This document shows, piece after piece, positions 7,000 through 61,822 of a stretch of 64,000 nt of DNA (positions within the stretch are counted from its first letter, which is position 1; each line of letters begins with the position of its first letter). The stretch covers positions 1,137 to 65,136 of the forward strand of contig JBBIQK010000005.1 of assembly GCA_037442365.1 (NCBI GenBank), written 5' to 3'. The translations under genes and the position numbers were made by a program. This stretch comes from Armatimonadota bacterium (lineage in GTDB: Bacteria; Armatimonadota; Fimbriimonadia; Fimbriimonadales; GBS-DC). The notes under the pieces are model-generated. The model did not search any database and was not told where the DNA came from. It was given only the letters and a program-made list of their open reading frames with translations.

Positions 7000-8424
7000 A
7001 TGCAACACGGCGACCGAAAAATGTGGGGCGGGCGATTCGAAGGCAAACTCTCGCCCGAAGCGGAGGCGTATTCCTATTCCTTACAGCACGATGTTCGGCT
7101 CTGGAAGGAAGAGCTGCGCGCCAGCGCGGCGCACGCCCGCATGATGGGCATCACGGGCATGCTCAGCACACACGAGGCGAACCGTATCGTGGACGCCCTG
7201 CTCGAAATCCACGCCGAGATCGAAGAGGGCGAATGGCTCCCGCTGGACGATTACGAAGACATCCACACGGCGATCGAGGCGCGCCTGTACGAGAAAATCG
7301 GCGCGCTGGCAGGCAAGCTACACACGGGGCGCAGCCGCAACGACCTCGTGGCGACCGAGACGCGCATGTGGCTGCGCGAGCGCACGACCGACCTCGCGCG
7401 CGCCATGCTGCGCCTGTGCGGGCAACTGATGGAACTCGCCGAGCAACATCTGGAGACGCTCCTGCCCGGACTGACGCATCAGCAGCATGCGCAGCCCGTG
7501 ACGCTGGCGCAGCACCTGATGGCGCATTGCTGGGCGTTCATTCGCGACCTGTCGCGACTGGCGCACGCGGGCGACCGCATGAACCTCTGTCCGCTGGGCG
7601 CAGGCGCGCTGTCGGGCACGAGCTTCCCCATCGATCGCGAGCTGCTCGCGGCGGAACTCGGCTTCGCGATGCCCGCACCCAACAGCATGGACGCCGTCGC
7701 CGACCGCGATTTCGTCGCCGAGTACCTGTTCGTGAGCGCGCTGCTGATGGTGCATCTGAGCCGCCTCGCGCAGGAACTGATCCTCTGGAGTACGCCCGAA
7801 TACGGCTATGTGGAACTCTCCGATGAACACACGACGGGCAGCAGCATCATGCCCCAGAAAAAGAACCCCGACATCGCCGAGCTGATTCGGGGGCGCAGCG
7901 CGCTGGTGATTGGCAACCTGACGGGCATGCTCGCGCTGCTGAAGGGGCTGCCGCTGACCTACAATCGCGATCTGCAGGACGACAAGCCGCTGCTGTTCGC
8001 GACGATGGACACTGCGATTTCGTCGGCAACGCTGATGCGCCAGATGCTGGAGAAGGCGCACTGGAACACCGAGCGCATGCGCGCCGCGCTGCAGGGCGAC
8101 TTCTCGACGGCGACGGAGCTGGCGGACTACCTGGTGCGCAAGGGCGTGCCCTTCCGCGAGGCGCACGCAATTGTCGGCGGCATCGTGCGCGAATGCCTGC
8201 AACAGGGCGTTGCGCTCGAATCGCTGACGCTGGAGACGCTCCAGCGCCATCATCCGCGATTTGAGGTGGACGCGCTGGAGGCGATTGACCCCCTGCAGGC
8301 GGTGCGGGCGCGCGCCATCCTGGGCGGAACCGCCCCCGAAGCGGTACAGCAGCAGATTAAGCAAGCCAAGCAGTGGCTGGGGGTCATCGAGAACCAGCTC
8401 AACGAGTTGCTGAACCCGAACTGA
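7000..8424 (+). CDS. argH: argininosuccinate lyase
   Basis: MWGGRFEGKLSPEAE...; TGRSRNDLVATE; GTSFPIDRE; GSSIMPQKKNPD signature. Start could also be ATG 7021. Confidence 0.95.
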   Translation: MQHGDRKMWGGRFEGKLSPEAEAYSYSLQHDVRLWKEELRASAAHARMMGITGMLSTHEANRIVDALLEIHAEIEEGEWLPLDDYEDIHTAIEARLYEKIGALAGKLHTGRSRNDLVATETRMWLRERTTDLARAMLRLCGQLMELAEQHLETLLPGLTHQQHAQPVTLAQHLMAHCWAFIRDLSRLAHAGDRMNLCPLGAGALSGTSFPIDRELLAAELGFAMPAPNSMDAVADRDFVAEYLFVSALLMVHLSRLAQELILWSTPEYGYVELSDEHTTGSSIMPQKKNPDIAELIRGRSALVIGNLTGMLALLKGLPLTYNRDLQDDKPLLFATMDTAISSATLMRQMLEKAHWNTERMRAALQGDFSTATELADYLVRKGVPFREAHAIVGGIVRECLQQGVALESLTLETLQRHHPRFEVDALEAIDPLQAVRARAILGGTAPEAVQQQIKQAKQWLGVIENQLNELLNPN

Positions 8425-8957: not shown

Positions 8958-9142
8958 CCACGCAGCCCCGAAATCGTCTCGCGCACACCTCGGAGGTGAA
9001 TCTACCCCACCAGGATAATCGGTCGCCGTGGTCCATGAAAGGGACTCGTTTTTGAACCCAAAGGGGTGACCCGCTCCTGATACCAACTGCGCCGTCAGAG
9101 TTCATAATTGCCGTGCATCTACAGCCAGAGCCACGCGCGTTT

Positions 9143-9240
9143 TGCCCTCACCCCCAGCCCCTCTCCCGCAGGCGGGCGAGGGGAGCCGTGCAAGCCTTGA
9201 GCGACACGCTATCCCCTCTCCCGAACCTTCGGGAGAGGGG
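9143..9240. repeat. GC-rich palindromic (REP-like) repeat cluster
   Basis: gccctcacccccagcccctctcccgcaggcgggcgaggggag (9143-9187) recurs inverted at 16446-16491. It is followed by a perfect 13-bp-stem hairpin cccctctcccgaa-cc-ttcgggagagggg (9213-9240). Confidence 0.75.
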
Positions 9241-9327
9241 GACAAAAGGGGCTTAAGAGGGTAGGTTTTTTTGAGGTGCGCGCTGCTTGCGGGCGCACCC
9301 AGAATATGGAGAAGCGCGTGTTCACAC

Positions 9328-9421
9328 GACGGCTGAAGCCGTTCCTATCAAACGAAGCCGACCTTCGTCGGCTATAGCCAGCGTAGGCTGGCTTTGTGTT
9401 GTAGGAACGGCTTCAGCCGTC
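9328..9421. mobile_element. MITE-like twin-hairpin element, copy A (94 nt)
   Basis: Terminal inverted repeats gacggctgaagccgttcctat / gtaggaacggcttcagccgtc. Internal stem-loops agccgac-cttc-gtcggct and agccagc-gtag-gctggct. A related copy lies at 41328-41474. Confidence 0.6.
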
Positions 9422-9695
9422 TTCTCTTCAAGCAGGACGCGAAAAAACCTACCCCTTTAAGGACAAAGTGGGTGAGGGCAACATCCAGCGCCGATTTACG
9501 AACTATGACCCGCAGATTGGTATTACTTGCTCTGTTGCAAGGATACTTGTTCCGCCTTCGGCACAGCCCACTTCGCCCCACAGGGCGCGGCGACCCCCTA
9601 CTCATGCCTGTACGGACGCGGTTCCCGCGTCCTGTTGTTCGGCTCTCCCATTCTTTGCAACAGAGCAGGTATTACTCTTCTCCCAGAATCTACGA

Positions 9696-9882
9696 GTTTC
9701 AATTAGCACCCACCCTTGGGGGTGAATGCTACTCACGGGTCCGTACTTATGGATCCGTACGACACCGAGGTTTCAATTAGCACCCACCCTTGGGGGTGAA
9801 TGCTACGGGGCCTGGCTCTACGAGTATTACACGTTGAGCCTCCCGGTTTCAATTAGCACCCACCCTTGGGGGTGAATGCTAC
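9696..9882 (-). CRISPR. orphan CRISPR mini-array, 3 repeats and 2 spacers
   Basis: Identical 37-nt repeat GTTTCAATTAGCACCCACCCTTGGGGGTGAATGCTAC at 9696, 9770 and 9846. Unique spacers of 37 and 39 nt. Internal palindrome CACCC..GGGTG. The minus-strand repeat ends in ATTGAAAC, the usual crRNA 5'-handle, hence the minus call. No cas genes in the window. Confidence 0.8.
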
Positions 9883-9887
9883 GGTAT

Positions 9888-9918
9888 AGTCTACCACATC
9901 AGACCCCCCCTTTGTCAA
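9888..9918 (-). promoter_or_regulatory. candidate array promoter (TTGACA-N19-TAGACT) reading into the array on the minus strand
   Basis: The minus strand reads cTTGACAaaggggggggtctgatgtggTAGACTatacc, then the first repeat. The 19-nt spacer is longer than optimal. Confidence 0.35.
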
Positions 9919-9939
9919 GTCCTGCGCGCGCTTCTTAAC

Positions 9940-10360
9940 AATTGACCCCCCGATTTGAACTCAACACTCTGCGCGAACCTCGACGCGATTTGAACTCAAG
10001 TGCGAATTTGGGGGAGGTTCGCGCAAAAAGTATCGTTGGGCGGCTGTTGTTCTGGGGGTGTGTTTTTGGGGTGTTTTTGAGTTCAGATTTGGGGGTGTGA
10101 TGTGGTGTTATTTGGGGGGTGAATTGGGTTCAGGTTCAACTATTTAGCGTGGCTAAGTATTGCGCGAAGGTCTGTAGACATTTGATTCAAGTTCAGAGGG
10201 GTGGGAGGTTCGCGCAAAGTTTAGCGTAGCTAAGGAGTTGAGGCGGATTGAGTTCAGGGTTTTGGGGTGTGAAGTTGAAGTGGCGCTTGAGGTTTGGGTT
10301 TGTGGGGTGTGAGTCGGTGGGGGGTTCGCGCAAAGTTTAGCGTGGCTAAGGATTTGGTGG
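9940..10360. repeat. G/T-skewed noncoding region with degenerate tandem modules (possible CRISPR leader or ncRNA)
   Basis: ggttcgcgcaaagtttagcgtRgctaagga at about 10207, 10323 and partially 10017 and 10143. tgagttcag/ttgaactcaa in both orientations. ggggtgtg runs. 12-bp inverted repeat tgcgcgaacctc (9970) / gaggttcgcgca (10014). No credible ORF. Confidence 0.55.
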
Positions 10361-10444
10361 GACGGCGAGCGGTTCCCGCCCGCGCGCGCCGTGTTGCCCC
10401 AACAGGCAGGAATCGCGCCTACCCCGCCGAATTGCGCAGGCGCT

Positions 10445-10720
10445 ATGCAACGCATTCCCGAATCGGAGCTGGCGGGCTATCTGGAGCGCGTGCCCCAATG
10501 GACGCGCGAGGGGATTGAGATCGCCCGCGCCTTCACCTTCCGCAACTTCCGCGAGGCGATGGGGTTCGTGATGCAGGTCGCGCTGCTTGCCGAACGCGCC
10601 GACCATCACCCCGACATCGAGATTCGCTACAAGCAGGTGACGCTGCGCCTCAGCACGCACTCGGCGGGCGGCTTGACTGAGAAGGACTTCGAGCTGGCGC
10701 AACAGATTGACCAGATTTGA
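10445..10720 (+). CDS. pterin-4-alpha-carbinolamine dehydratase (PCD/DCoH)
   Basis: 91 aa. FRNFREAMGFVMQVALLAERADHHPDIEIRYKQVTLRLSTHSAGGLTEKDFELA is the classic PCD motif (HHPD). Confidence 0.9.
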   Translation: MQRIPESELAGYLERVPQWTREGIEIARAFTFRNFREAMGFVMQVALLAERADHHPDIEIRYKQVTLRLSTHSAGGLTEKDFELAQQIDQI

Positions 10721-10721
10721 G

Positions 10722-12248
10722 ATGCGCGGGATTCCGATTGTCGACTCGGAGCAGATGCGCGCGCTGGATCGCGCGGCGATAGAGGCGGACGGCATCCCGT
10801 CGCTGACGCTGATGGAGCGCGCGGGCTACGGCGTGTTCCAGCGGATTGCGGAGTGGTTCGCGCCGCTGTCGGGCAAGCGCGTGGCGGTGCTGACGGGCAA
10901 GGGCAACAACGGCGGCGACGGGATGGTTGTGGCGCGCTATCTGCATGAGGCGGGCGCGCAGGTGCATTTGTGGCTGGCGTGTGCGCCCGACGAGTTTCGG
11001 GGCGACGCGGCGACGCAGTGGCGGACGGTGCAGGCGTATGGCATCCCCGCGCTGCCGCTGCCCGACGCGCCCGACCCTGCGCTGTTCCGCGACGAAGACC
11101 TGCTGGTGGACGCGCTGCTGGGGATTGGCGCGCGGGGCGACCTCAGCCCGCGCCTGTGCGCCGTGATCGACGCGGTGAATCGGGCGGGACGCCCCATCGT
11201 GGCGGTGGACATCCCGTCGGGCATCGACGCCGACACAGGCGTCGCGCTGGGCGCGGCGGTCTGGGCGACCTACACGGTCACGATGGCGCTGCCCAAGGCG
11301 GGCTTTTTCCAGAACGACGGGGCGCACTGCGTCGGGCGCTGGGCGATTGCGCCGATTGGCATTCCCCCGCGCCGTCTGGAGGCGACCCCGTGCGTGGCGC
11401 GGCTGATGACCGAGCAGGAGACGCTCGCGCGGACGCCCTGCCTGCCGCTGGACGCGCACAAGGGGCATCGGGGGCATGTGCTGGTGGTGGGCGGTAGTCT
11501 GGGGATGGCGGGCGCGCCTGCACTAACGGCGATTTCCGCGCTGCGCGTCGGCGCAGGGCTGGCGACGGTCGCTACCCCCGCGCGCATCCAGCCGCAGGTC
11601 GCCAGCTTCTACCCCGAAGTGATGACCCTGCCCCTGCCCGACGACGACACAGGCGCGCTGACCGTGCCGGGCGCGCAGTGGCTGGCGGAGCGCCTCGCCC
11701 GATTCAGCGTGCTGGCGCTCGGTCCAGGGCTGGGCGCGCACGAGACCGTCGGCAAGGCGATGCTGGAACTGTTAGAGGCGTGGCGCGTGCTGGAGCGACC
11801 GCTGGTCATCGATGCGGACGGGCTGAACTGGCTGGCGCGGCTGGGCGCGGACACCCCCCTGCCGACGCACACGATTCTGACCCCCCATCCGGGCGAGGCG
11901 GCGCGCCTGCTGCAGATTGAGACCCATCAGGTGCAGCAGGACCGCTACAGCAGCGCGGAGCTGCTGCACGAGCGCTACCGTGCGCTGTGCGTGCTGAAGG
12001 GCGCGTACACGGTGATTGCGGACGAAGGGGGCTTGTGGCTCGCGCCGTTCGCCGAGCCGAGCCTGGCGACAGGCGGGTCGGGCGATGTGCTGACAGGCGC
12101 GATTGCAGGACTGCTGGCGCAGGGGCTGGAGCCGTTGCCCGCGGCGCAGCTGGGGGTCTACCTGCATGGGCAGGCGGGCGCGCGATTGGCATGCGGCGGT
12201 CGCCCCGCCTACACCGCCGACGAGCTGAGCCGCGCCCTGCGGGTCTAA
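10722..12248 (+). CDS. nnr: bifunctional NAD(P)H-hydrate repair enzyme (epimerase / ADP-dependent dehydratase)
   Basis: YjeF-N (VAVLTGKGNNGGDGMVVARYL) plus a carbohydrate-kinase-like C-terminal domain (GHVLVVGGSLGMAGAPAL...GGSGDVLTGAIAGLLAQG). ATG 10722 is preferred to the TTG at 10707. Confidence 0.88.
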   Translation: MRGIPIVDSEQMRALDRAAIEADGIPSLTLMERAGYGVFQRIAEWFAPLSGKRVAVLTGKGNNGGDGMVVARYLHEAGAQVHLWLACAPDEFRGDAATQWRTVQAYGIPALPLPDAPDPALFRDEDLLVDALLGIGARGDLSPRLCAVIDAVNRAGRPIVAVDIPSGIDADTGVALGAAVWATYTVTMALPKAGFFQNDGAHCVGRWAIAPIGIPPRRLEATPCVARLMTEQETLARTPCLPLDAHKGHRGHVLVVGGSLGMAGAPALTAISALRVGAGLATVATPARIQPQVASFYPEVMTLPLPDDDTGALTVPGAQWLAERLARFSVLALGPGLGAHETVGKAMLELLEAWRVLERPLVIDADGLNWLARLGADTPLPTHTILTPHPGEAARLLQIETHQVQQDRYSSAELLHERYRALCVLKGAYTVIADEGGLWLAPFAEPSLATGGSGDVLTGAIAGLLAQGLEPLPAAQLGVYLHGQAGARLACGGRPAYTADELSRALRV

Positions 12249-13006
12249 CGCGCCTCCTTCTCGCCGAGCAGCTCTTTGCGCAACTGGAGCGACGGCTCGT
12301 GTCCGGGCTTCAGCGCGAGCGCCTTTTCCAGCTCGACGAGGGCGTCGTCCCGCTGCCCCAGTTTGGCGTACACCGCCGCGAGGTGATAGCGCAGGTCAGG
12401 CGTGTCGGGCGCGGTCTGCACCGCCAGACGCAATTCGCGCAGCGCCTCGTCGTACCGCCCTAGTTTATACAGCACCCAGCCGTGCGTATCGTGGTACGCG
12501 CCGACATTCGACTTGATAGCAATCGCCCGCCGAACCAGCCGCAGCGCCTTCTCCAGCTCGCGCCCATCTTCCGCAAGCGCGTAGGCGTAGTCGTTCATCG
12601 CCAGATGGTTCTGCGGGTCTAACTGGAGCGCCTTCTCGAACCACGGGGCGTACTCGTCGCGCTTGCCCGCCAGAAACGCCAGCGTGCCCAGCACCTGATA
12701 AAAGCCCGCGCGGTCGATCTGCACGGGGATTTCACTGGCGCGCGGCTCGTACTGCACCAGAAACGCATACGCCTGCGCCGCGGGGCGTTCAGGGCGCGCC
12801 ATGTAGGCGCGATACACATCCTGCAAGGCAACGACGAAGTTGGGCGACTGCTCCACATACTGTTTGAAGAGCGCCGCCGCGCCCTCGTAGTCGCGCGTCT
12901 CCAGCTTCTGCACGCCTTGCTCCAGCAAGCTCGGTTTCTGCGGCTCCGTGCGCCCGCAGCCTGATAGCATCAGCCCGATTACCAGCAACCCGATAAGCAC
13001 TCGCAT
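12245..13006 (-). CDS. TPR-repeat lipoprotein
   Basis: Lipobox LMLSGC after MRVLIGLLVIG. TPR units such as GRYDEALRELRLAVQTAPDTPDLRYHLAAVYAKLGQRDDAL. Confidence 0.7.
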   Translation of the reverse strand: MRVLIGLLVIGLMLSGCGRTEPQKPSLLEQGVQKLETRDYEGAAALFKQYVEQSPNFVVALQDVYRAYMARPERPAAQAYAFLVQYEPRASEIPVQIDRAGFYQVLGTLAFLAGKRDEYAPWFEKALQLDPQNHLAMNDYAYALAEDGRELEKALRLVRRAIAIKSNVGAYHDTHGWVLYKLGRYDEALRELRLAVQTAPDTPDLRYHLAAVYAKLGQRDDALVELEKALALKPGHEPSLQLRKELLGEKEAR

Positions 13007-13012
13007 GGCGGG

Positions 13013-16000
13013 TTAGAGCGCGCTCTCAGGCACGCGCTGCGCTTCGATGGTGAAGCTCAACCCCATCGCGTTGAGGGTTCCCGTGAGGCGGTCGCCAGAC
13101 ACGGTTGCGTTCACGGTGAAGCTCATGCCGCCCGCTTCTAAGGTGAGCGTGAGCGTCTCGCCGTCGGGCGCGGCGATGCTGAACTCCTGTGTGCCCAGCG
13201 GCGTCTCCAGCGCGCCGCGCAGCTGGTTGCCCTCCTGACGGATGCGCAGGGTGAAGGGCACGCCCTCAGGGGGCAGCGGATCGCCGCCCGTAATCGTGCC
13301 GCGCCATGTGCCTGCGAATCGCACGGGCGCGCCTGTCGGCGGCGTCTCGCGGGGCGCGGACTCCTCACGCTCGCGCCGCCGCTCGTCGAACACCGACTCG
13401 GCGCGCAGCCCCTTCAGGTACTCATGACGCTCCTTCTCCAGCTCCTCGCGCCATGCACGGTCGCGCTCGCGGTCGAAGTAAAGCACGCCGTCCACGAAGG
13501 TCTTCTCGCACACGGCGTAGCCGCTCAGCGGGTGGTCGCTCCAGAGCGCGAGGTCGGCGTGCTTGCCCACCTCAATCGAGCCGACATAGCGGTCGATACC
13601 GAGCTGCTTGGCGACATTCAGAGTCACGAACTTGAGCGCCTCCGCTTCGGGTACGCCGCCGTACTTGACCGCTTTGGTCGCTTCGGTGTTCATGCGGCGC
13701 GCCAGCTCGTTGCTGTCGGAGTTGAAGCTCACCACCACGCCGCGCTCCCACATAATCGCGCCGTTGTGCGGGATGGCGTCATACACCTCGATTTTGTACG
13801 CCCACCAGTCGGAGAACGAGGACGCCCCTGCCCCGTGTCGGGCAATCTCGTTGGCGACCTTGTAGCCCTCCAGCACATGCTGGAGCGTGCCCACGCGCAC
13901 GCCGAACTCCTCGCACACACGCAGCAGCATTAGTATCTCGTCCTGGCGGTAGCTGTGGCAGTGAATGAGCCGCTTGCCCTCCAGAATCTCGACCAGCGCG
14001 TCGAGTTGCAAATCGCGCTGAGGCGGCAGCGGGCGCTTGCCCTGCCGATACTCTTCCCAGTGGCGTTTGTAGTCCAGCGCGGCGAGGAACCGCTCGCGAA
14101 TCACCTGCTCCACGCCCATGCGCGAGGCGGGGTAGCGCGTCGATCCGCCCGTGCGGAAGTTGGAGCGTTTGACATTCTCGCCCAGCGCGAACTTGATGCC
14201 TGTGGGCGCCTCTTTGAAAATCATCTCGTCGGCGGTCTTGCCCCAGCGCCACTTGACCGTGATGCTCTGTCCACCAATCACATTCGCCGAGCCGTGCAGC
14301 ATCAGCGCGCCCGTCAGACCGCCCGCGAGCTGGCGGTAGATGTTCACATCGTCGGGGTTAATCACATCCTGAATGCGCACTTCGGCGGTGCAGACATTCG
14401 TGCCCTCGTTCACGCCGCCGGTGATGGCGGTGTGCGAATGGCAGTCCAGCAGTCCGGGCGTGAGGTGCTTACCCGTGCCGTCGATGATGCGTGCGCTGGG
14501 CGGCGCGGTCAGGTTCTTGCCCACCGCCGCGATTTTGCCGTCCACCACCAGCACATCGGCGTCAGGCAGCGGCTGATCGTGCGCCAGCGTCCACACGGTG
14601 GCGTTGCGAATGAGCCAGGTGTTGTGTTCATCGGCGGGCGGGGGCATCAGCGGCGTGAGCTTCACGCGCGGCAGAGTCGGCGTCTCGTCGGATGCGCCTG
14701 CCTGCTCCGTGCGCTCAGCGGGCGGCTGACTGGTCTGCTCGCGCGGGGCGTCCTGTCGCGGGGGCACGCCCGCAGTGAGGTGGTCGGTGCATGCCTCCTC
14801 ACACGCATGCGCCTCATGGTCGTGGCTCTGCATGTGGGTTAATGTGCTGCCGTGCGCGTGGTGGAAGCAGCAGGAGGCTTCCATCAGGCTGCCCGTGTTC
14901 TCGGCGTCCCAGTCGCGCGGGCGGCGGAAGGGCGGTGTGGCAGGCGCGCTTGCGGTCTGTTGCGCGTCGCTCACTTTGAAGCGCTTGCCGTCCGCGAACA
15001 CGAACTCGATTCGCGCGCGCGGCTCAAACAGTTCCCCGCGCGCCACCACAAAGCTCGCCGTCTTGCCCACCGCGAGGTCGCCGAAGCGGTTTTGCAGCCC
15101 CATCAGCTCGGCGGGGGTCAGCGTCAGGGCGCGCAGCGCCGCCTCTTTGGGCAAGCCGTTCGCAATCGCCGTGCGCAGGTTGCGCAGCAGCCGCTCTGGG
15201 TCGCCCAGCCCCTCGGTCGTGATAGCGAATCGCACCCCGTGTTCGTGCAGAATCGCGGCGTTCTGATACGCCAGCGCGCGGTTGCGCAGGCTGGTCAGCG
15301 TCGGCGGGTTGAGCGGGTCGTAGCTGCGCAACGGTTCAGGCATCTCGAGGGTCAGCAGCACGGGGATGTCGCGCTTCTTGAGTTCGTCGGCGACCTTCGC
15401 CGCTTCCTGCCCGCCCACAATCACCACGCGCAGGTTGAACTCGTCGGCGATGCGCAGCACACGGCGGATGTCTTCCGCGCTGTTGGCGATTGCCAGCAGG
15501 GGCGTCTCACGCTTCAGCACGGGCTGCAACGCCTCCAGCGCGCGGTTCATCGCCGGGCGCGGCTTGCCCGTCGGGTCGCGCAGGTACGCCTCCCAAACCT
15601 GCATCTGGTGCTGCGCGTCGTAGAGCGTCTGGCGCACGAGCGCAATCGCGCCCATCAGCGAGCTGGGGTAGCCGCCCCCGCCCTCAAAGCCGCCGCGCCC
15701 GCGCAGATTCAACACCACGCCGACCTGCGGCGCAATCACCAGCTCTGCAGGCGCGCCCGTCCCCACGCTGATGACCGCGCTCTGCCCGCTCATAATGCCG
15801 TGCGGCGGCGCAATATGCGCGGCGACGAAGCCTGCGCGACGCCAGCGCGCCAGCTGCGCCGAATCGGGCTGCATCAGTACCGTCGCCTGACGCTCCGGGC
15901 GAATCTGCGCATTCGGGTGGGTGTTGCCGCGCTCGTAACTGGCATACGCGGGATCGTTCGCCTGCGCAGGCATGCCCAGACTCGTGAACGCATCGATAAA

Positions 16001-16252: not shown

Positions 16253-16445
16253 CGCAGACGGCAGATTCGACGGCGGGCGAGCGATTCCTGCCCGACAATT
16301 TGCGCCCATGCGTGCAAGGCGCATCCTTTGGAGTGCTGAAGCGGGAGCTTCAGCATGCGCGGAAGCTCCGCTTCCGCAACACCCTTTGTCACCTCTCTCA
16401 AAGGGTTGGGAGAGGAGGGATGCACCTGGCACAATGCTGGCGCGA

Positions 16446-16491
16446 CTCCCCTCTCCCGCCTGCGGGGGGAGGGGCTGGGGGTGAGGGCTGT
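16446..16491. repeat. inverted copy of the 9143-9187 palindromic repeat
   Basis: ctcccctctcccgcctgcggggggaggggctgggggtgagggc is the reverse complement of the 9143 copy, with about 4 differences. Further hairpins (gctgaagc-ggga-gcttcagc) lie just upstream at about 16336-16380. Confidence 0.75.
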
Positions 16492-28883: not shown

Positions 28884-29879
28884 ATGCATTCCGACCTCTA
28901 CGACATCACGATTATCGGCGGCGGTCCGGTGGGCTTGTTTGGCGCGTTCTACGCGGGGCTGCGCGGGATGCGCGTCAAAATCATCGACAGCCTGCCTGAG
29001 CTGGGAGGGCAGCTCACCGCGCTTTACCCCGAAAAGTATGTGTACGATATGCCCGGCTTTCCCGAAGTGCTGGCGAAAGACCTCGCGCGGGAGATGATTC
29101 GCCAGGCGCTGCGCTTCAAGCCGACGGTATGCCTCGAGGAGCGCGCTGAGACGCTCACCCGTATCGATGAGGGCTGGACGATTACGACTCACACAGGGCA
29201 GGCGCACCATACACGCGCCGTTGTTATCTGCGCGGGGGCGGGCGCGTTCTCCCCGCGCAAGCTGAACGCCGAAGGCGTCGCCGCGTTCGAGGGCAACGGC
29301 ATCTACTACGGCGTGCGCGAGAAATCAATTTTTGCGGGCAAGCGGCTGCTGATTGTCGGCGGCGGCGACTCCGCAGTGGACTGGGCGCTGAACCTCTACC
29401 CGATTGCTCACGAGGTCACCCTCATCCACCGCCGCGACGAGTTCCGCGCCCACGAGCAGAGCGTGCAGGAGCTGCGCCGCTCGCCCGTGAAACTGTTGAC
29501 CCCCTACGAACTGCGACGAGTCTGCGGGAACGGCAGCGTCGAGCGCGCCGTCATCTTCCACAACAAAACGCAGGAAGAGATTGAATTGCCTGTGGATGCC
29601 GTCATTCTGAATCTGGGCTTCGTCGCGACGCTGGGACCCATCAAAAGCTGGGGGCTGGAGTTGCAGGGCAACCAGATTGTGGTGGACGAATACATGCAGA
29701 CGAACCTGCCCGGCGTGTACGCGGCGGGCGATGTGTGTACGCATCGGGGCAAGTTGAAGCTCATCGCCACGGGCGTCGGCGAGGTCTGCACCGCCGTCAA
29801 TCACGCTAAGAGCGTCATCGACCCCACCGCCAAAATGTTTCCCGGACACAGCAGCGACATGGAGCTGCCTGCGTTGTGA
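28884..29879 (+). CDS. ferredoxin-NADP+ reductase, thioredoxin-reductase-like (type 2)
   Basis: YDITIIGGGPVGLFGAFYAGLRGM...LGGQLTALYPEKYVYDMPGFP...IVGGGDSAVDWA...GVYAAGDV matches YumC-type FNR. Confidence 0.9.
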   Translation: MHSDLYDITIIGGGPVGLFGAFYAGLRGMRVKIIDSLPELGGQLTALYPEKYVYDMPGFPEVLAKDLAREMIRQALRFKPTVCLEERAETLTRIDEGWTITTHTGQAHHTRAVVICAGAGAFSPRKLNAEGVAAFEGNGIYYGVREKSIFAGKRLLIVGGGDSAVDWALNLYPIAHEVTLIHRRDEFRAHEQSVQELRRSPVKLLTPYELRRVCGNGSVERAVIFHNKTQEEIELPVDAVILNLGFVATLGPIKSWGLELQGNQIVVDEYMQTNLPGVYAAGDVCTHRGKLKLIATGVGEVCTAVNHAKSVIDPTAKMFPGHSSDMELPAL

Positions 29880-31063
29880 AAATATCAGAGAAACAGATGA
29901 TAGTTCTGGATGGAAAAGTTCAGGGATTGAGCTTTCGTGGACAGCCTGCAGAGCTGCCCATCTATGAGTGGAATAGCTTCGACATCAACTCCATTCGTCA
30001 CGCCTGCAAAGTGAGTTTCCCTGACGGAACTGCAGTTGCTCTGTCGCGTTGGACAGGTCCGAAGAGGACTCGCACATATCCTCTCGCGAGTTTGTACGAT
30101 GCCTATTCCTATTCAGGAAAAATTATCACGGTCATCCCTATTGTAAAAGATGAGGGGCTTGGAGAACGCAAAAACGACTCGAACCTGGATAGAGTTAACT
30201 TCATCACGCTTTCGTGGATGAGCCTGATGAACATCTACATAATCCTTGCCTGGTACAACGAAGCTAAGAAGAAAAGCGACTCCCGAATCACATGTCAGAA
30301 GATTCAAAACAATCATGTGAAACAAAAGATACAGGAAATTTTAGCGTATAGACAAGATGCCCACCACTGGAACCAGAAGCATTTTACTGAGGAGTTCATA
30401 CCGATTTATCAATCTGCAATTGAAAGTTATGAGACGATTGGTCGTGAACTCAAGGTTCAGATGCACGACCGTAAGATTCACGAAGAATACCTTCGGCGGG
30501 TTCGCTGTGAAAATCAGGAGAATACGCTGAACCTTGAGCGATTCAAGCAAATTTCACTTGCAAGGTCGCACCAATCCGCGATTACCGAAACCAGAACAGA
30601 GCACGCGCTGGAGTCGCGGGGGAATTTTCCGAAACCGCTTTTCAGAATCGTGAATAATCTTGGCGGACACTACTACCTGACGGCAGACGAGGTGGAGTTT
30701 ATTGACGAAAGTGAGGTAGTTATCCGAGAGAATAAGAATACGACCAGAGCTATTTTACCCTCGATGCCTGACATCAAAGACGGATTATTCAAGTTGTTGC
30801 TCTATTCCCAGCTCAGCGAGCTGCGACATGGCGATCAGCAACTTCGTTTCAGGGCGCAGCTGTGCCTTTCTGGAAGATTTCAGGGTGAGCTGCAACTGCC
30901 GGCAGAGTCTGGGGCGATTGAGCGTTTTCTGCAACAGTTCAAAAGTCGCGGCAGCTCGTTGCAGCAACGACTTCACTGGCTAAATCGTGAGCTGAAATTG
31001 CTTGGAATCGAGGGCATTCTCAAGCCAGCCAGAACCGTAGGCGGCGACGGAGGCGAGTCATGA
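29876..31063 (+). CDS. putative type II restriction endonuclease (PD-ExK)
   Basis: Low-GC ORF. The GTG start overlaps the fnr stop (alternative ATG at 29897). The C-terminal half has LTADEVEFIDESEVVIRENKN, a D...ExK nuclease motif. The stop overlaps the start of the Dam-class methyltransferase (ATGA). Confidence 0.6.
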   Translation: MKISEKQMIVLDGKVQGLSFRGQPAELPIYEWNSFDINSIRHACKVSFPDGTAVALSRWTGPKRTRTYPLASLYDAYSYSGKIITVIPIVKDEGLGERKNDSNLDRVNFITLSWMSLMNIYIILAWYNEAKKKSDSRITCQKIQNNHVKQKIQEILAYRQDAHHWNQKHFTEEFIPIYQSAIESYETIGRELKVQMHDRKIHEEYLRRVRCENQENTLNLERFKQISLARSHQSAITETRTEHALESRGNFPKPLFRIVNNLGGHYYLTADEVEFIDESEVVIRENKNTTRAILPSMPDIKDGLFKLLLYSQLSELRHGDQQLRFRAQLCLSGRFQGELQLPAESGAIERFLQQFKSRGSSLQQRLHWLNRELKLLGIEGILKPARTVGGDGGES

Positions 31064-31983
31064 TCAAAAGTCCCCTGCGTTTTCCAGGAGGCAAGTCGCG
31101 CGCCATTGCGCAAATGTTGCCTCTGATACCGGAATTTGAGGAGTATCGTGAGCCGATGGTGGGCGGTGGATCGCTCTTTCTGACGCTCAGGCAAAAATAC
31201 CCCCATCGGCGCTACTGGATTAATGACATTAACTACGAACTTTACTGCTTTTGGAAAATCGCTCAGGAGGACGCAGATGCACTGGCAAACGCTGTGCATC
31301 GCGTGCGAGAGGAAACCGCGGATGGACGCATACTTTTTTATCGTTTGCTGGAGAATTACGGACATGGAAGCGAGTTCGAGCGCGCGGTGCGTTTTTTTGT
31401 GTTGAACCGAATCACTTTTTCGGGCACTGTGGATTCTGGAGGATATTCCGAGCAAGCATTCCGAGCGCGGTTCACACCGTCGTCGATTGAACGCATACGC
31501 CCTCTGGGGCGTCTCCTACGAGGCGTGCAAATTACCTGTCAAGATTACGAACCTGTGGTTCAGGCGACTGGCGAAAGCGTGTTCATCTACCTCGATCCTC
31601 CGTATTACTCTGCAGCGGAGTCGCGGCTCTATGGCAAGCGCGGAGAGCTGCATCTGCAGTTCAATCACCAGCGTCTGCGCACTATTCTGCGTCAGATTCC
31701 TCACAAATGGCTACTCACCTACGACGACTGTTCCTACATTCGGAATCTTTATGGCGACTGCACAATCTTACAGTGGACGCTGCAATATGGGATGAATAAT
31801 TACAAGCAGGCTCGCGCCCTTCCGGGCAGGGAACTATTCATCGCGAACTATCTGGGAAGCCAGTCTCTTAACCAGCTGATATTGACTCTTGAAAGAGGCA
31901 GCGTGCAGTATGCGGTTGTAAGTGAACAACCCGTGCCTGATTCAGAGCAGCGTCCAGCAGAAGAGCATCCAGCGAAAGCGTAG
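31060..31983 (+). CDS. N6-adenine DNA methyltransferase, Dam/D12 (alpha) class
   Basis: LRFPGGKSRAIAQMLPLIP, EPMVGGGSLFL (motif I), then IYLDPPYY (motif IV). The motif order is that of alpha-class m6A methyltransferases. Confidence 0.9.
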   Translation: MIKSPLRFPGGKSRAIAQMLPLIPEFEEYREPMVGGGSLFLTLRQKYPHRRYWINDINYELYCFWKIAQEDADALANAVHRVREETADGRILFYRLLENYGHGSEFERAVRFFVLNRITFSGTVDSGGYSEQAFRARFTPSSIERIRPLGRLLRGVQITCQDYEPVVQATGESVFIYLDPPYYSAAESRLYGKRGELHLQFNHQRLRTILRQIPHKWLLTYDDCSYIRNLYGDCTILQWTLQYGMNNYKQARALPGRELFIANYLGSQSLNQLILTLERGSVQYAVVSEQPVPDSEQRPAEEHPAKA

Positions 31984-41190: not shown

Positions 41191-41327
41191 GGCTTCTACC
41201 CCCGCGCGGTCGATTCGCCGCACACGTCCCTATTCCTTGCAAGGTACGCTGGTGAGCGTTGCGAAGTGTGCGAATCACCTTATGTAAGCGCGATTAGAAG
41301 CCGTTCAGGAATGCGCGCTCAAATCCA

Positions 41328-41474
41328 GACGGATGAATCCGTTCCTAACAAACGAAGCCAGCCTGCGCTGGCTCCCCGTAGATTGGGCATCCTGCCCAAA
41401 ATCAAGCGCAGGATGCGCTTGCTACTTCAGCCGACGAAGGTCGGCTTTGTGTGATAGGAACGGCTTCAGCCGTC
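41328..41474. mobile_element. MITE-like twin-hairpin element, copy B (147 nt)
   Basis: gacggatgaatccgttcctaacaaacgaagccagcctgcgctggct ... agccgacgaaggtcggctttgtgtgataggaacggcttcagccgtc. The arms are homologous to copy A (9328-9421). The centre carries the extra hairpin gcatcctgc-N12-gcaggatgc. Confidence 0.6.
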
Positions 41475-41524
41475 GGGCACAAACGCCCCCTATTCCGTTG
41501 TTTGCCTACTTTTCTGGAATGCTT

Positions 41525-42319
41525 CTAACTTGCCATCTGCACGCTCTCCTCATATCCAGTCACTTGAGTGTGCGCTAACCGTTCCAGAATGTTCTCGATT
41601 TGCTGTACTTTCTCGTGAATCTCCCGTGCCCTGCCAGCAGAACTCATTTCCCGCACAGGGTGCGCAATATCATTCCTGAAATGAACAAGAGTATTTAAGC
41701 AATTTTCTGATTGCTTGCGAGAACTAAACCCCAGACACCAACGCAAATGTTTATCTTTGCAAACAATGTTTACAATGTCGCTCAGCGATAGAACCTCGAT
41801 GTAGCCTGTATCCACACCGTCTGTCTGCCGCTCCATGCGCAATTTACGAACCTCAGCCTGTCTTTTCGGGGAAAGAAACTCCAGTATCCTCTCCTCGGCA
41901 GGCTGGCAGTATTCGCGTATCAGTTGACTGAGGCAATACTCCAGTTCACCCACCAGCGTAAAGAGGTAGGTACGGCAGGCAACCTTGTTCAGGTCGGCGG
42001 GTGAGACGATGCCGTCCACGCGCGCGCCGTTGACCACAAGGTAGGCTGGCTTGGCGTGTGGCTCGCTGAAAATGCGGATGACTTCGCGGATGGGGGTGGA
42101 GTGTGCAACAATCCACTCTTCAGTGATGGGTTCAGGCAGATACTCACCCTCGCGAAGCACCCAGAGACCCACGAAACAATCGCCCTCGGTTCTTGGAATA
42201 ACATCATAGCAGGGTTTACCTCGCAGCACGGGCGTGACAGACGCCACTTCCAACCGCTTGCGCGGCGTCATAATGTATTCCACCGTAAACGCATCCCGAA
42301 GCGTCTCATACAGTTTCAT
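41525..42319 (-). CDS. CBS-like domain protein with C-terminal HEPN-type (Rx4H) helical domain
   Basis: Visibly lower GC than the flanks and its own GGAGGG SD. N-terminal EYIMTPRKRL...VDGIVSPADLNK is CBS-like. C-terminal LVHFRNDIAHP contains R-N-D-I-A-H, the Rx4H HEPN RNase motif. Domain calls are by eye only. Confidence 0.5.
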   Translation of the reverse strand: MKLYETLRDAFTVEYIMTPRKRLEVASVTPVLRGKPCYDVIPRTEGDCFVGLWVLREGEYLPEPITEEWIVAHSTPIREVIRIFSEPHAKPAYLVVNGARVDGIVSPADLNKVACRTYLFTLVGELEYCLSQLIREYCQPAEERILEFLSPKRQAEVRKLRMERQTDGVDTGYIEVLSLSDIVNIVCKDKHLRWCLGFSSRKQSENCLNTLVHFRNDIAHPVREMSSAGRAREIHEKVQQIENILERLAHTQVTGYEESVQMAS

Positions 42320-54454: not shown

Positions 54455-54572
54455 TCTGGGCATCGACCTATTTTCCCACTCCGTTACCAGAGCAGTATCT
54501 TCGGCGCTGGAGGGCTTAACTGCCGTGTTCGGGATGGGAACGGGTGTTTCCCCTCCGCTATGGACACCCAGA
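54455..54572 (-). rRNA. rrf: 5S ribosomal RNA
   Basis: The minus strand reads TCTGGGTGTCCATAGCGGAGGGGAAACACCCGTTCCCATCCCGAACACGGCAGTTAAGCCCTCCAGCGCC...GATGCCCAGA. Ends are accurate to about 3 nt. Confidence 0.9.
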
Positions 54573-54793
54573 TTGAAAGGGTAATCGCACCTTTTGAGAG
54601 GGTCGGTTCCCTCTCAGGAGGTGTTTGACAACTGGAGCTGGAGTCGTCGGAAGTGCGTCAATAGGCAAGCCCTCGGTCAATTAGTACGGCTCAGCTCAAC
54701 GCATTACTGCGCTTACACATGCCGCCTATCAACCCGGTCATCTACCGGGGACCTTACTCCGTTAAACGGATGGGAGACCTTATCTTGGGGTGG

Positions 54794-54824
<31 letters not shown>

Positions 54825-54970
54825 CCGTCCCGACATGGCTACCCAGCGTCTGCCCCTGGCGGGACAACTGGTACACCAGAGGTCAGTCCAGCCCGGTCCT
54901 CTCGTACTAGGGCCAGCTCCCCTCAAGTCTCCTGCGCCTGCGGTGGATAGGGACCGAACTGTCTCACGCA

Positions 54971-55801
54971 CATACCTCCCTTGTTTCCAAGGGTGTAGAC
55001 TATACCTCCATCCTCCCGAAGGACCAGGAGGAGCCGGCGTGTGATGAGCGCCATAGATTTGCCCTCTTCAGGGCAGGACGCCCATCTCAGGCGTAAAGCC
55101 TTCAGTCGTTACGGGGAACGGCAGCTTGCACCGCATCACTGGCACAACATAGGGTTCAATCAGTTGCACAAGCCGTTGCGCCTGTTTCACTGGGAGATAG
55201 AGCCAGTGCGCGTGTCGCTTCGGACTTGCGTGGATATGCGCCTCCAAACCAAAGTTTGCTTCGAGCGCACCACACAGGCGTTCCAAACCGATTCTGGAAA
55301 AGCACTGCGTCTCTATCTTGACCGAACCCTGTCGTTTGTCAAGTGTGCCATCGTCCATGTACCAGACTGCAAGCGCCAGAGGCGTGTTGAGCAATTCAAC
55401 GATGTTCTCTGGAACCTCTTTTCTCCCATGAGGGTAGAAAAGCGCTCGCAGCTCTGCAAGGAGCGGATGGCATCGGGTGACGAAACGCCAGTATGGGTAG
55501 CCTCTGTTGGTTTGACGATTCATCGGGGATGGTTTCAAATCCGCCAGCATTGCGTGCTTCCACGCCACATAGTCGCGGAAGCGTTCGGCGTGCAAGACCT
55601 GAAGGCGCACGCCGCGCCCGTGCGGTTCGAGATAGCCATCTCCGAGAATCGTGCCAATCAGAAGGTCCTTCATCTTCAGCTCCCGTTCTTCCCTCGGTAT
55701 TGCCCTCTGCAGCGTTCGGTGGACTGCAGGAGGGGTCTACCGATATGAGCCGGTAGGCACCACAGGATTACTCCTGTGGGACGCCACGCCCGTTTGGGCT
55801 A
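54971..55801 (-). mobile_element. group I-type intron 1 (831 nt) at the E. coli U2593-equivalent site, HEG-containing
   Basis: Exon junction GGGTTCAGAACGT|...G|CGTGAGACAGTTCGG. U precedes the 5' splice site and the intron ends in G. GCGU near the intron 5' end can pair with exon ACGU (U.G wobble). GNRA-capped hairpin CCCTTGGAAACAAGGG. Confidence 0.8.
55068..55673 (-). CDS. double-motif LAGLIDADG homing endonuclease (in intron 1)
   Basis: LIGTILGDGYLE and LAVWYMDDGTLD motifs about 100 aa apart. 201 aa. The last ~17 codons overlap the conserved intron core. Confidence 0.85.
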   Translation of the reverse strand: MKDLLIGTILGDGYLEPHGRGVRLQVLHAERFRDYVAWKHAMLADLKPSPMNRQTNRGYPYWRFVTRCHPLLAELRALFYPHGRKEVPENIVELLNTPLALAVWYMDDGTLDKRQGSVKIETQCFSRIGLERLCGALEANFGLEAHIHASPKRHAHWLYLPVKQAQRLVQLIEPYVVPVMRCKLPFPVTTEGFTPEMGVLP

Positions 55802-55837
<36 letters not shown>

Positions 55838-55883
55838 TGAACCCCCCAACCCTTGGGACCTTATTCAGCCCCAGGATGCGACG

Positions 55884-56248
55884 CATGGTACTCCACTGTT
55901 TCCAGTGGCACAGACTATCGCATCACCTTGACCATCGCCTGTCAAGGGTTCGGCGTATGATGAGCGCCGTAGATTTGCCCCATTCAGGGCAAGACGCCCA
56001 TCTCAGGCATGAAGCCTTCAGTCGTTACGGGGTCAGAGGAGCTTGTATTCCATTACTGGAGGTACATAGGGACGGGAATGCTGGCGATGCCCGTCGCTTT
56101 GTACCGTGCTGCAGAAAGTGTGCAGCATTTTCGGCTCCTCGACTTCCCACGGGATTACCCTCGCCAATCGGGGGAGGATTGCGTTAGGGCTTCCCCGTTA
56201 TCAGCCGAATTTTACCTGAAGAGTCGCCTCTTCAGGGGCCCTTCGTTG
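55884..56248 (-). mobile_element. group I-type intron 2 (365 nt, ORF-less) at about E. coli U2511
   Basis: Junction GATGTCGGCT|CAACGAAGG...CCATG|CGTCGCATCCTGGGG. U at -1 and terminal G. GGCC near the 5' end pairs with exon GGCU. Shares a 75-nt block (about 69/75 identical) and the P9-like GAAA hairpin with intron 1. Confidence 0.75.
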
Positions 56249-56497
56249 AGCCGACATCGAGGTGCCAAACCCCGCCGTCGCTGTGGACGCTCGGGCAGGA
56301 TCAGCCTGTTATCCCTAGGGTAGCTTTTATCCGTTGAACCCTGGCGTGCCCACGCACAGCCAGAGGGTCACTAGGCCCTGCTTTCGCATCTGCTCGACCC
56401 GTTGGTCTCACAGTCAAGCCCGCTTATGCCCTTGCACTCGACGCGCGATTTCCGACCGCGCTGAGCGGACCTTTGGACGCCTCCGTTACCGTTTAGG

Positions 56498-57443
<946 letters not shown>

Positions 57444-57716
57444 AAGACTGTCTCCACGCCGGATCACGGCGCAGGTTAGCATTCCAGTAGGTCAAGGGTG
57501 GTGTTCCATTGGCGCCGAAGCTCCCACCTACGCTCTACATGACATACCGAAATGCAATCTCAAGCTGTAGTAAAGCTCCATAGGGTCTTTCCGTCCTACC
57601 GCAGGTAACCCGCATCTTCACGGGTGCTACAGTTTCACCGAGAGTCCCGCTGAGACAGTGGCCCAGTCGTTACGCTTTTCGTGCGGGTCGCAATTTACGC
57701 GACAAGGAATTTCGCT

Positions 57717-58035
57717 TATCGCCTTACCCGAGAAGTTGTCTCGAGCGAGCCACACCCTTCCTTGTCATAGGGAATAGCTCCTGCATGTCGCCATGCAGAT
57801 GGGACCATCTCTTCACCTCGTCGTTGAGGTACCCAGCGTATGGTCTCTGAGGATTCTAATCACCGAAAGTGATTAGTCTTTCCTGCTGGTTGTCCGCACC
57901 AGACGGATTGTTACTCACAGGAATTGTATTTTCTCACGGGTGAGAATTTCCTGCAAGTACCGCTGGATACTCGGAGTTTCCAGCATATAGCTGGGTGCGC
58001 ACCTCATGGTTACCCATGAGGGGGGCAGCGAAGGT
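57717..58035 (-). mobile_element. intervening sequence 4 (319 nt, ORF-less) at the E. coli U1931-equivalent site, related to intron 3
   Basis: Junction CGGTCCTATGGT|ACCTTCGCTGCC...GGCGATA|AGCGAAATTCCTTGTCG. Shares GCTATATGCTGGRAASTCCG, GCGGACAAYCAGCAGGRAAG and CCTCAACGAC with intron 3. The 3' end is not a G under this alignment (see findings). Confidence 0.65.
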
Positions 58036-58239
58036 ACCATAGGACCGTTAGAGTTACGGCCGGCATTCACCCGGGCTTCAGTTCAGGGCTGCACCTTGCG
58101 GCTGACCCCTCCCCTTAACCTACGGGCATTGGCCAAGCGTCGCCCCCTATACATCGGGTTTCCCCTTCGCAGAGAGCTGTGTTTTTGGTAAACAGTCGCC
58201 GGGCCCGCTTTGCTGCGACCTCTTTCGAGGCACCCCTTC

Positions 58240-58273
<34 letters not shown>

Positions 58274-58823
58274 TAGCGGGACTTCTCTCGCGCGCCTGAG
58301 GCTCCTCGCCTCGCCTACCTGTGTCGGTTTGCGGTACGGTCAGGTGGTTTCAACGCTACACGGGTTTTCTCGGCTCCAGTCACAGTCGCTTCGTTCACCC
58401 GAAGGATCCCTTCGTCGCCCCAGAGTTGCCGCTGGGGCGAGCGCAGCCTTCCAACTCTGCGCCCGACCGATTCTGAAGCGTCGCCGTTTTGCTCCGCCAC
58501 CTGGGGTGGGAATGTTGACCCACTGCCCTTCGCCTACGGCTTTTCGCCCTCGACTTAGGACCGCCTAACCTTCAGCGGACGAACCTGCCTGAAGAACCCT
58601 TAGGCTTTCGGCGGACGGGATTCTCACCCGTCTTCTCGCTACTCGTGCCGGCATTCTCACTTCTGCACGCTCCAGCGGTGCTTTCGCTCCGCCTTCACTG
58701 CGAGCAGAACGCTCCCCTACCGCTCCCATTGCTGGGAACCCGCCGCTTCGGTAACAGGCTTGAGCCCCCTTACATTATCGGCGCAGGGTCACATTCGACC
58801 AGTCAGCTGTTACGCACTGTTTA

Positions 58824-58854
<31 letters not shown>

Positions 58855-59743
58855 TTGTTTACGCGACCCTACATCCTTTAACACTTAGCCTGTGTTTAGG
58901 GACCTTAGCGGGCGGTCTGGGCTATTGCCCTTTTGACAACGGCGCTCATCCGTCGCTGTCTCACTGCCACGGTTCCTGCTATGCCATTCGGAGTTTGGTT
59001 GGGTTCGGTAACCTGGTGGGGCCCCTAGCCCATCCAGTGGCTCTACCTGCACAGCATAATCCGTGACGCTGCACCTCAATGCATTTCGGGGAGAACCAGC
59101 TATCTCCGCGCTCGATTGGCATTTCACCACACTAACCCCAGTTCCTCCGAGACCTTTTCAACGGTCACCAGTTCGGCCCTCCACCGTGTGTTACCACGGC
59201 TTCAGCCTGACCAGGGTTAGATCGCGCGGTTTCGGGTCTGCACCCAGCGACTGGAACGCCCTGTGTGGACTCGCTTTCGCTACGGCTCCGCGTCTGAGAC
59301 GCTTAACCTTGCCGCTGAGCACAACTCGCCGGCTCATTCTGCAAAAGGCACACCGTCAGACTGTCCCCCAGAGGGGTATAGTCCTCCGATTGTTTGTAAG
59401 CGCACGGTTTCAGGTTCTGTTTCACTCCCCTCGCCGGGGTGCTTTTCACCTTTCCCTCACGGTACTGGTTGCGCTATCGGTAGCAAGGAGTATTTAGCCT
59501 TACCCGGTGGTCCGGGCAGATTCGCACAGGGTTCCTCTTATCCCGTGCTACTCGGGATTCCGACGAGGCGTTCCACTTTTCGCATACGGGGCTGTCACCC
59601 GCTGTGGCGTGCCTTTCCAGACACTTCTGCTAAGCGGTTCGCTCTCTGATGTCGGTCCCACGACCCCAATCGGGCACGCCCGATTGGTTTAGGCTCTTCC
59701 CCGTTCGCTCGCCGCTACTGAGGGAATCTCGTTCGATTTCTTT

Positions 59744-59784
<41 letters not shown>

Positions 59785-60082
59785 CACACCGCCTATGGGT
59801 TCAGCGGTGGGTGACCACCCATTCGGTGGCCGGGTTCTCCCATTCGGGGATCTGCGGATCAACGCCTGTTTGCGGCTCCTCGCAGCTTATCGCAGCTTAC
59901 CACGCCCTTCATCGGCTCCTTGCTCCTAGGCATCCGCCGTGCGCCCTTAGTAGCTTGCCTACTTTGGCGCGCTTCTCGATGACTCCAGTCCAGTTGTCAA
60001 AGGGTAAATCGTTGGGTCCGTTGCCCGTTGTTGGCGCCTACAGCCCAACCGTCAACGCCCCGTGAGGCGCTGAGGGTTAGGT

Positions 60083-60157
60083 TGGTGGAGGCGACCGGAT
60101 TTGAACCGGTGACCCCCTGCGTGCAAAGCAGGTGCTCTCCCGCTGAGCTACGCCCCC
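60083..60157 (-). tRNA. tRNA-Ala (UGC), CCA encoded
   Basis: The minus strand reads GGGGGCGTAGCTCAGCGGGAGAGCACCTGCTTTGCACGCAGGGGGTCACCGGTTCAAATCCGGTCGCCTCCACCA. G3:U70 is present and the anticodon loop is CTTTGCAC. Confidence 0.92.
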
Positions 60158-60159
60158 AC

Positions 60160-60236
<77 letters not shown>

Positions 60237-60293
60237 GTATGTGGCTCCCTCAAAACCGAGCAGGCAGTGCTTTGCAAGCCGAGAGTATCCGTT

Positions 60294-61822
<1,529 letters not shown>

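Follow-up and report, generated by a model that had tools for sequence, protein, structure and literature searches.

The window, by which we mean the whole 64-kb stretch of DNA analysed here, carries three exact copies of a 37-nt repeat, GTTTCAATTAGCACCCACCCTTGGGGGTGAATGCTAC, separated by two unique spacers of 37 and 39 nt. The earlier note on this DNA had named ArgH, pterin-4a-carbinolamine dehydratase (PCD) and Nnr as the nearest genes, and these assignments were confirmed. On its high-coordinate side the array adjoins a long conserved leader; on the other side lies a tract of dispersed repeats. The features of the locus, in order of coordinate, are:

7000–8421: ArgH gene, a neighbour of the array
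8959–10401, no strand assigned: 1443-nt block that is absent from the syntenic site of genome AP024673.1 (alignment with locus L017 of that genome; blastn)
8971–9005, minus strand: possible decayed trailer-end repeat, in which the leader-proximal half ..CCTCGGAGGTGAAT-CTAC is kept (Smith-Waterman score 26)
9094–9675, no strand assigned: three nested or adjacent MITE-like dispersed repeats (inverted repeats, and copies elsewhere)
9094–9251 and 9462–9526: MITE-like element A, split by element B
9252–9461: MITE-like element B, with terminal inverted repeats CTTAAGAGGGTAGG...
9520–9675: MITE-like element C, with terminal inverted repeats GTATTACTTGCTCTGTTGCAAGGA
9696–9732, minus strand: CRISPR repeat 1 at the trailer end, the oldest (exact 37-mer)
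9733–9769, minus strand: older spacer, 37 nt, unique
9770–9806, minus strand: CRISPR repeat 2 (exact 37-mer)
9807–9845, minus strand: newer, leader-proximal spacer, 39 nt, unique
9846–9882, minus strand: CRISPR repeat 3, leader-proximal and directly adjoining the conserved leader (exact 37-mer)
9883–10355, minus strand: 473-nt leader that ends sharply on its distal side, at ...GCTAAGGATT (homology to other leaders)
9888–9918, minus strand: promoter-like pair TTGACA (9918–9913), N19, TAGACT (9893–9888), 5 nt upstream of repeat 3
10143–10157, 10220–10234 and 10336–10350: three copies of a palindromic leader box, TTTAGCGTGGCTAAG, each beside a TTCGCGC(A) motif (inverted and direct repeats)
10445–10720, plus strand: PCD gene, in the flank and outside the CRISPR system (alignment; the orthologue in L017 is annotated Pterin_4a)
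10722–12245: Nnr gene, a neighbour of the array

The three repeats and two spacers are as the earlier note had described them, and a shuffle control for the 37-mer returned no match of any kind in 100 shuffles. This anatomy corresponds to the generic definition of a CRISPR array, with at least three near-identical direct repeats of 23–55 nt and unique spacers of similar length, and the array also has the conserved leader that arrays of the same repeat carry on one side. Both spacer lengths lie inside the 35–47-nt range of the repeat family. A PADLOC search of the 47 larger ORFs of the 64-kb window gave no match to Cas families, and Pfam gave no Cas domain in the 10 ORFs nearest the array, in agreement with the earlier observation that the window holds no cas genes.

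An exact-repeat scan that covered one genome per species recovered the repeat in 8 other stretches, all on AP024673.1, with as many as 25 copies in a run. AP024673.1 is a complete 2.99-Mb metagenome-assembled genome (MAG) of the Fimbriimonadales (Armatimonadota) and the closest sequenced relative; the DNA flanking the array is ~95% identical in nucleotide sequence between the two, and the Nnr proteins are 97% identical. This sister genome holds about six other arrays of the identical repeat, four of them large, and a slightly degenerate pattern traced the repeat family to at least 120 JGI hot-spring contigs. This result narrows the word orphan that had been attached to the array. It holds within the 64-kb window, where the array resembles orphan arrays in having no cas gene nearby; orphan arrays proper have neither cognate cas genes nor sister arrays in the genome, whereas AP024673.1 has both.

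Two strains with identical Cas1 proteins, represented by loci L009 and L010, have 3 spacers in common, followed at the leader end by 5 private spacers in L009 and 3 in L010; the 19 older spacers are missing from L009. This polarised, leader-end gain indicates that the repeat family actively acquires spacers, and it was observed on the family's cas-adjacent array (L009/L010), not on the window array. Across all loci retrieved for the family we counted 2427 spacers, 2258 of them unique. Their lengths in the window's clade run from 35 to 47 nt with a mode of 40–42 nt. A 42-repeat array at 11686–14518 of another locus, L014, has a near-identical repeat (GTTTCAATGGGCACCC...) and spacers of only 28–35 nt, with a mode of ~31 nt.

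The leader is the second feature that ties the window array to this family. It is 77–93% identical to six leaders of AP024673.1 arrays, on one array side only, and ~80% identical to those of JGI hot-spring contigs. The similarity ends at the same position, GCTAAGGATT, in all full-length copies, and the leader of L006 (AP024673.1) is shorter. In related arrays, degenerate terminal repeats sit at the end opposite the leader; together with the strain-specific new spacers, this places the leader on the high-coordinate side, and the window array is therefore read on the minus strand. The palindromic box TTTAGCGTGGCTAAG is conserved across leaders, and a more distant relative of the family, locus L142, has a single homologous box at the distal end of a 148-nt leader. 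The portion of the window leader at 10009–10356 is made of repeated modules, comprising TTGAGTTCA..., GGTTCGCGCA and the palindromic box. In the leaders of L006 and L007, GGTTCGCGCA and its inverted partner GCGCGAACC have changed together, to GGTTCGCCA.. and GTGGCGAACC, a co-change that may point to a hairpin or to a site bound by a protein.

The part of the leader closest to the repeat is the most conserved. A 37-nt repeat-proximal block, CTTGACAAAGGGGGGGTGTGATGAGGTAGACTATACC, is nearly invariant across 48 leaders, and the window copy departs from them by two private substitutions that both fall between the hexamers, leaving TTGACA and TAGACT intact. In the leader of L142, which has a type I-C operon and serves here as an outgroup, the corresponding arrangement is TTGACA-N18-TAGAAT, 6 nt from the repeat, with a different inter-hexamer sequence. 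Hexamers that are kept while the intervening sequence changes are the pattern expected of a promoter, and the guess that TTGACA-N19-TAGACT, 5 nt from the repeat, is one is strengthened by this comparison. The conserved hexamer block may also be part of the leader anchor of the integrase.

The minus-strand sequence of the repeat is GTAGCATTCACCCCCAAGGGTGGGTGCTAATTGAAAC, with the 3' end ATTGAAAC. The corresponding RNA is predicted to form a 12-bp hairpin, including G-U pairs, with a free energy of -18.9 kcal/mol (z = -4.2; none of 200 shuffles as stable), while the plus-strand RNA is less stable, at only -13.8 kcal/mol. The internal CACCC/GGGTG stem proposed earlier thus belongs to a predicted hairpin whose stem is longer than was stated. 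After the minus-strand hairpin an 8-nt AUUGAAAC tail is left single-stranded. The nearest Rfam family is CRISPR-DR9 (RF01322), found on the minus strand with 24.9 bits and E = 0.0045 per repeat. As the gathering score is 45, the repeat is no member by the Rfam criterion; the likeness lies in the 37-nt length, the GUAGC... start, the CAAG-type loop and the AUUGAAAC end, all on the minus strand. The earlier note had read the minus-strand end ATTGAAAC as the canonical 8-nt crRNA tag. The end itself is correct, and the tag length may be wrong in detail, since the family descends from type I-C (see below), where Cas5d leaves an 11-nt 5' tag (PMC5965381). The single-stranded tail measures 11 nt in the type I-C repeat of L142 versus 8 nt in the window repeat, where the stem is extended.

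Genes for spacer acquisition were located in the sister genome, which at ~95% nucleotide identity we use as a proxy for the genome of the window. In AP024673.1, cas2 and cas1 abut one of the leaders (L001/L010). The Cas1 protein matches Pfam Cas_Cas1 at 1e-96 and scores 404.6 bits against TIGR03640 (NCBIfam Cas1c), above the cutoff of 385, and hence belongs to the Cas1c family. No other cas gene was found within 10 kb of this pair. The same stand-alone layout of cas1-cas2, leader and array recurs in 4 further genomes, with Cas1 proteins 66–87% identical and different neighbours each time, and no effector gene (cas5d, cas8c, cas7 or cas3) lies within 10 kb of cas1-cas2 in these 5 genomes of the window's clade. 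No cas4 adjoins cas1 in L010, L009, L013, L014, L015 or L016. Every other array of AP024673.1 has housekeeping flanks, free of effector genes in Pfam, NCBIfam and PADLOC searches, and the few metagenomic array contigs with flanking sequence hold housekeeping genes and no effector. A search with the Csd2 of L142 gave no AP024673.1 protein among the best 120 matches, all of them at least 59% identical to the query.

L142 supplies the connection to a known type. Its Cas1 is 54% identical, and the gene order is cas5d-csd1-cas7-cas4-cas1-cas2, followed by an array whose 37-nt repeat, GTTGCATCCGCCCTTCAGGGCGGGTGAGGATTGAAAC, is identical to the window repeat at 27 of 37 positions and carries compensatory changes in the stem. 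A type I-C operon beside a homologous repeat indicates that the repeat family of the window descends from type I-C (Dvulg). Type I-C repeats have a stable hairpin and a ...ATTGAAAC end. The window repeat has both, and the Cas1 linked to it passes the Cas1c cutoff. The window's clade differs from type I-C in that its cas1-cas2 pair stands alone, with no cas4, cas5d, cas8c, cas7 or cas3 within 10 kb, and it differs from L142 itself in spacer length (35–47 versus 34–38 nt), single-stranded tail (8 versus 11 nt) and leader length (473 versus ~148 nt). In L142 (6119–11339) and in L143 the type I-C operon has no adjacent cas3, and csd1 of L142 is present as two ORFs. Another metagenomic locus, L084 (JGI contig Ga0209778_100199), lacks ~1.5 kb relative to L013, from the GH42 gene to the leader, with cas1 and most of cas2, in what looks like a natural loss of the adaptation module; its array consists of just four repeats, of which one is degenerate.

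The window array belongs to a discrete block of DNA. By both blastn and alignment, the match between the ~95%-identical flanks is interrupted at 8958|10402 in the window, equivalent to 5681|5680 in L017. In AP024673.1 the syntenic order is argH, a gene of 177 aa, PCD and nnr, and the gap between the 177-aa gene and PCD is only 44 bp, where the window has the additional 1443 nt. The block starts with 12 nt of unique sequence and contains putative trailer remnants, the MITE-like repeats, 20 nt of unique sequence before repeat 1, the array, the leader and ~46 nt more. No target-site duplication and no terminal inverted repeats were found at the block ends, only a 2-nt 'AC' microhomology, so that an insertion in the window lineage and a deletion in the sister lineage would look alike. 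In more distant relatives the PCD-nnr pair is retained, with different genes upstream and no array, and no second strain with the window's array was found.

The MITE-like elements on the trailer side have copies of 78–93% identity at L001, L002, L004, L006, L007 and L008, and within the window at 16327–16488 and 41296–41528. Such MITE- or REP-like copies lie near the trailer end of the AP024673.1 arrays L001, L002, L005, L006 and L007, and others lie far from any array. The idea that the trailer-side repeats form the terminus of a cassette was rejected, as the same elements also occur far from arrays.

We consider that the locus is a bona fide and probably functional small array, one of several in a CRISPR system that descends from type I-C in a thermophilic lineage of the Fimbriimonadales, and that it is served by Cas proteins in trans; we put the probability of this reading at about 0.8. 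Points that weigh against it are that the cas1-cas2 pair is known from a sister genome and has been lost in the related strain of L084, that neither the cas1-cas2 flanks nor the arrays examined showed effector genes, that the array has just two spacers, for which the searches gave no protospacer, and that its promoter block carries two private substitutions. Service by a distant cas locus was among the possibilities raised earlier, and it is supported by the identical repeat, by the homologous 473-nt leaders and by the position of one such leader beside cas1-cas2 in AP024673.1; the window's own genome would be expected to encode a corresponding pair. Dispersed arrays with a common repeat and paralogous leaders, supplied by one adaptation module in trans, are familiar from Thermus thermophilus, Sulfolobus and cyanobacteria. 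AP024673.1 resembles such multi-array genomes (Thermus thermophilus, for example) in that its arrays lie at unrelated sites with only one beside cas1-cas2. No difference from them is essential, although here none of the arrays examined lies beside effector genes, and the distal boundary of the leader is unusually sharp and conserved. The window array is thus ordinary in kind.

A working model of the array follows from its anatomy. Transcription would proceed on the minus strand from the predicted promoter TTGACA-N19-TAGACT and would start approximately where repeat 3 begins. Each repeat in the transcript would fold into the 12-bp hairpin followed by the single-stranded ...AUUGAAAC tail, and a repeat-specific endoribonuclease would cut at the 3' base of the hairpin to leave a 5' tag of 8–11 nt. 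If the effector is still of type I-C, the cutting enzyme would be Cas5d and the tag the 11-nt CUAAUUGAAAC (PMC5965381); if the arrays now serve another effector, a Cas6-like enzyme would be expected, with an 8-nt tag. The two resulting crRNAs would be loaded into an effector encoded elsewhere in the genome. For adaptation, the distant Cas1-Cas2 would recognise the leader-repeat junction that the paralogous arrays have in common, and new spacers would be added next to position 9882.

The spacers themselves gave no indication of a target. Both full spacers and four halves of 22–23 nt had no match in IMG/VR viral contigs, neither spacer matched GenBank phages, and spacer 1 (9733–9769) had no match in JGI metagenome contigs. 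Against the window and all retrieved loci neither spacer gave a match longer than 12 nt, and the 2427 spacers of the family, searched against the same set, gave only chance matches of 12–21 nt. The spacer search that the earlier note had recommended returned no protospacer in these collections and no self match in the window or the retrieved loci. The repeat was not found in viral contigs, and there is no sign of a virus-borne mini-array.

An extension of this reading, which we offer tentatively and consider rather unlikely as a whole, is that the cas1-cas2-leader-repeat module of the clade, type I-C by descent, has been uncoupled from its Cascade genes, perhaps by their loss, and that the arrays now serve a different effector. 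Leader-array units would then be gained and lost as discrete blocks, the 1.44-kb block in the 44-bp spacer being one such event. Three features hint in this direction: cas4 has been lost, the leader has expanded three-fold, and spacers in the window's clade are longer and vary more in length, which would fit the loss of cas4.

Among the competing explanations the most durable is decay. Under this explanation, which had also been considered from the start, the locus would be the remnant of a longer array reduced by MITE insertions and recombination between repeats, no longer expanding, maybe unexpressed, and heading for the deletion seen in the sister genome. The sequence at 8971–9005 may be a decayed repeat in the same orientation as the array, separated from repeat 1 by ~580 nt of MITE-like elements. 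Its score of 26 places it among the highest-scoring 0.1% of tiles, level with two further loci as the best outside the array in the 64-kb window, which makes the match suggestive only, marginally above background. A second candidate at 9040–9075 scored only 16, which is not significant, and was discarded. The absence of the whole block from AP024673.1 and the two private substitutions in the promoter block would also suit decay, as would the existence of decayed mini-arrays in the sister genome and the four-repeat array of L084, which goes together with the loss of cas1-cas2. The decayed mini-arrays, at 2737–3200 of L006 and 5486–6154 of L007 in AP024673.1, retain leaders and have 2 and 3 repeats, respectively. 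In L006 one repeat is mutated and the leader is truncated, with an IS701-like transposase close by; L007 has lost 4 nt from its middle repeat and carries a further deletion in the promoter spacer. The two have in common a near-identical trailer flank of ~160 nt. Unlike either, the window array has three repeats that match the family consensus and a leader of full length with both hexamers intact. We therefore regard a remnant as improbable, and as a poorer fit than a maintained array. The perfect repeats suggest that the array is young or well maintained, and the possible decayed repeat and the MITE-like elements suggest some age for the locus.

The third possibility in the earlier note, a regulatory mini-array, is very improbable, as is a self-targeting one; under this reading crRNA-like RNAs from the locus would control host genes. 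The array is small and sits within a cluster of housekeeping genes, and these are the only points in favour. Against the window and the retrieved loci neither spacer matches over more than 12 nt, the repeat and leader are those of large, fast-turning-over immune arrays, and with no copy in the closest relative the array is not a conserved regulator. A non-CRISPR dispersed or tandem repeat of the REP or MITE type, for which one could cite the true MITE-like repeats that crowd the same intergenic region, is refuted by the confinement of the 37-mer to regular arrays with unique 35–47-nt spacers and the same leader always on one side, by the cas1-cas2 pair adjoining one of these arrays and by the polarised gain of spacers.

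With the window array taken as a member of a multi-array system, two aspects lift it slightly above the routine. One is the all-or-nothing distribution of an entire leader-array block between strains of 95% nucleotide identity, a modest example of CRISPR arrays multiplying and disappearing between close strains. The other is the uncoupling of a type I-C-derived cas1-cas2 from any visible effector across the clade. In this little-studied thermophilic lineage adaptation genes, arrays and presumably the effector genes are scattered round the chromosome. For annotation, the lack of cas genes over 64 kb is not sufficient ground for labelling an array orphan, as a search with repeat and leader can link it to a multi-array system. 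The 2258 unique spacers of the lineage are usable for linking viruses and hosts in hot springs.

Elsewhere in the window, an rRNA operon with 16S, tRNA-Ile, tRNA-Ala, 23S and 5S genes occupies 54455–61822 on the minus strand. Its 23S gene is broken up into several Rfam matches and contains at least two group I introns (57161–57424 and 57781–58042), and homing-endonuclease matches appeared among the window ORFs in the PADLOC search. A type II restriction enzyme is encoded at 29876–31060 (PADLOC REase_II, 7.5e-48), and a strong type II methyltransferase match (2.5e-129) lies in the first half of the window, probably in the adjacent ORF at 31060–31980.
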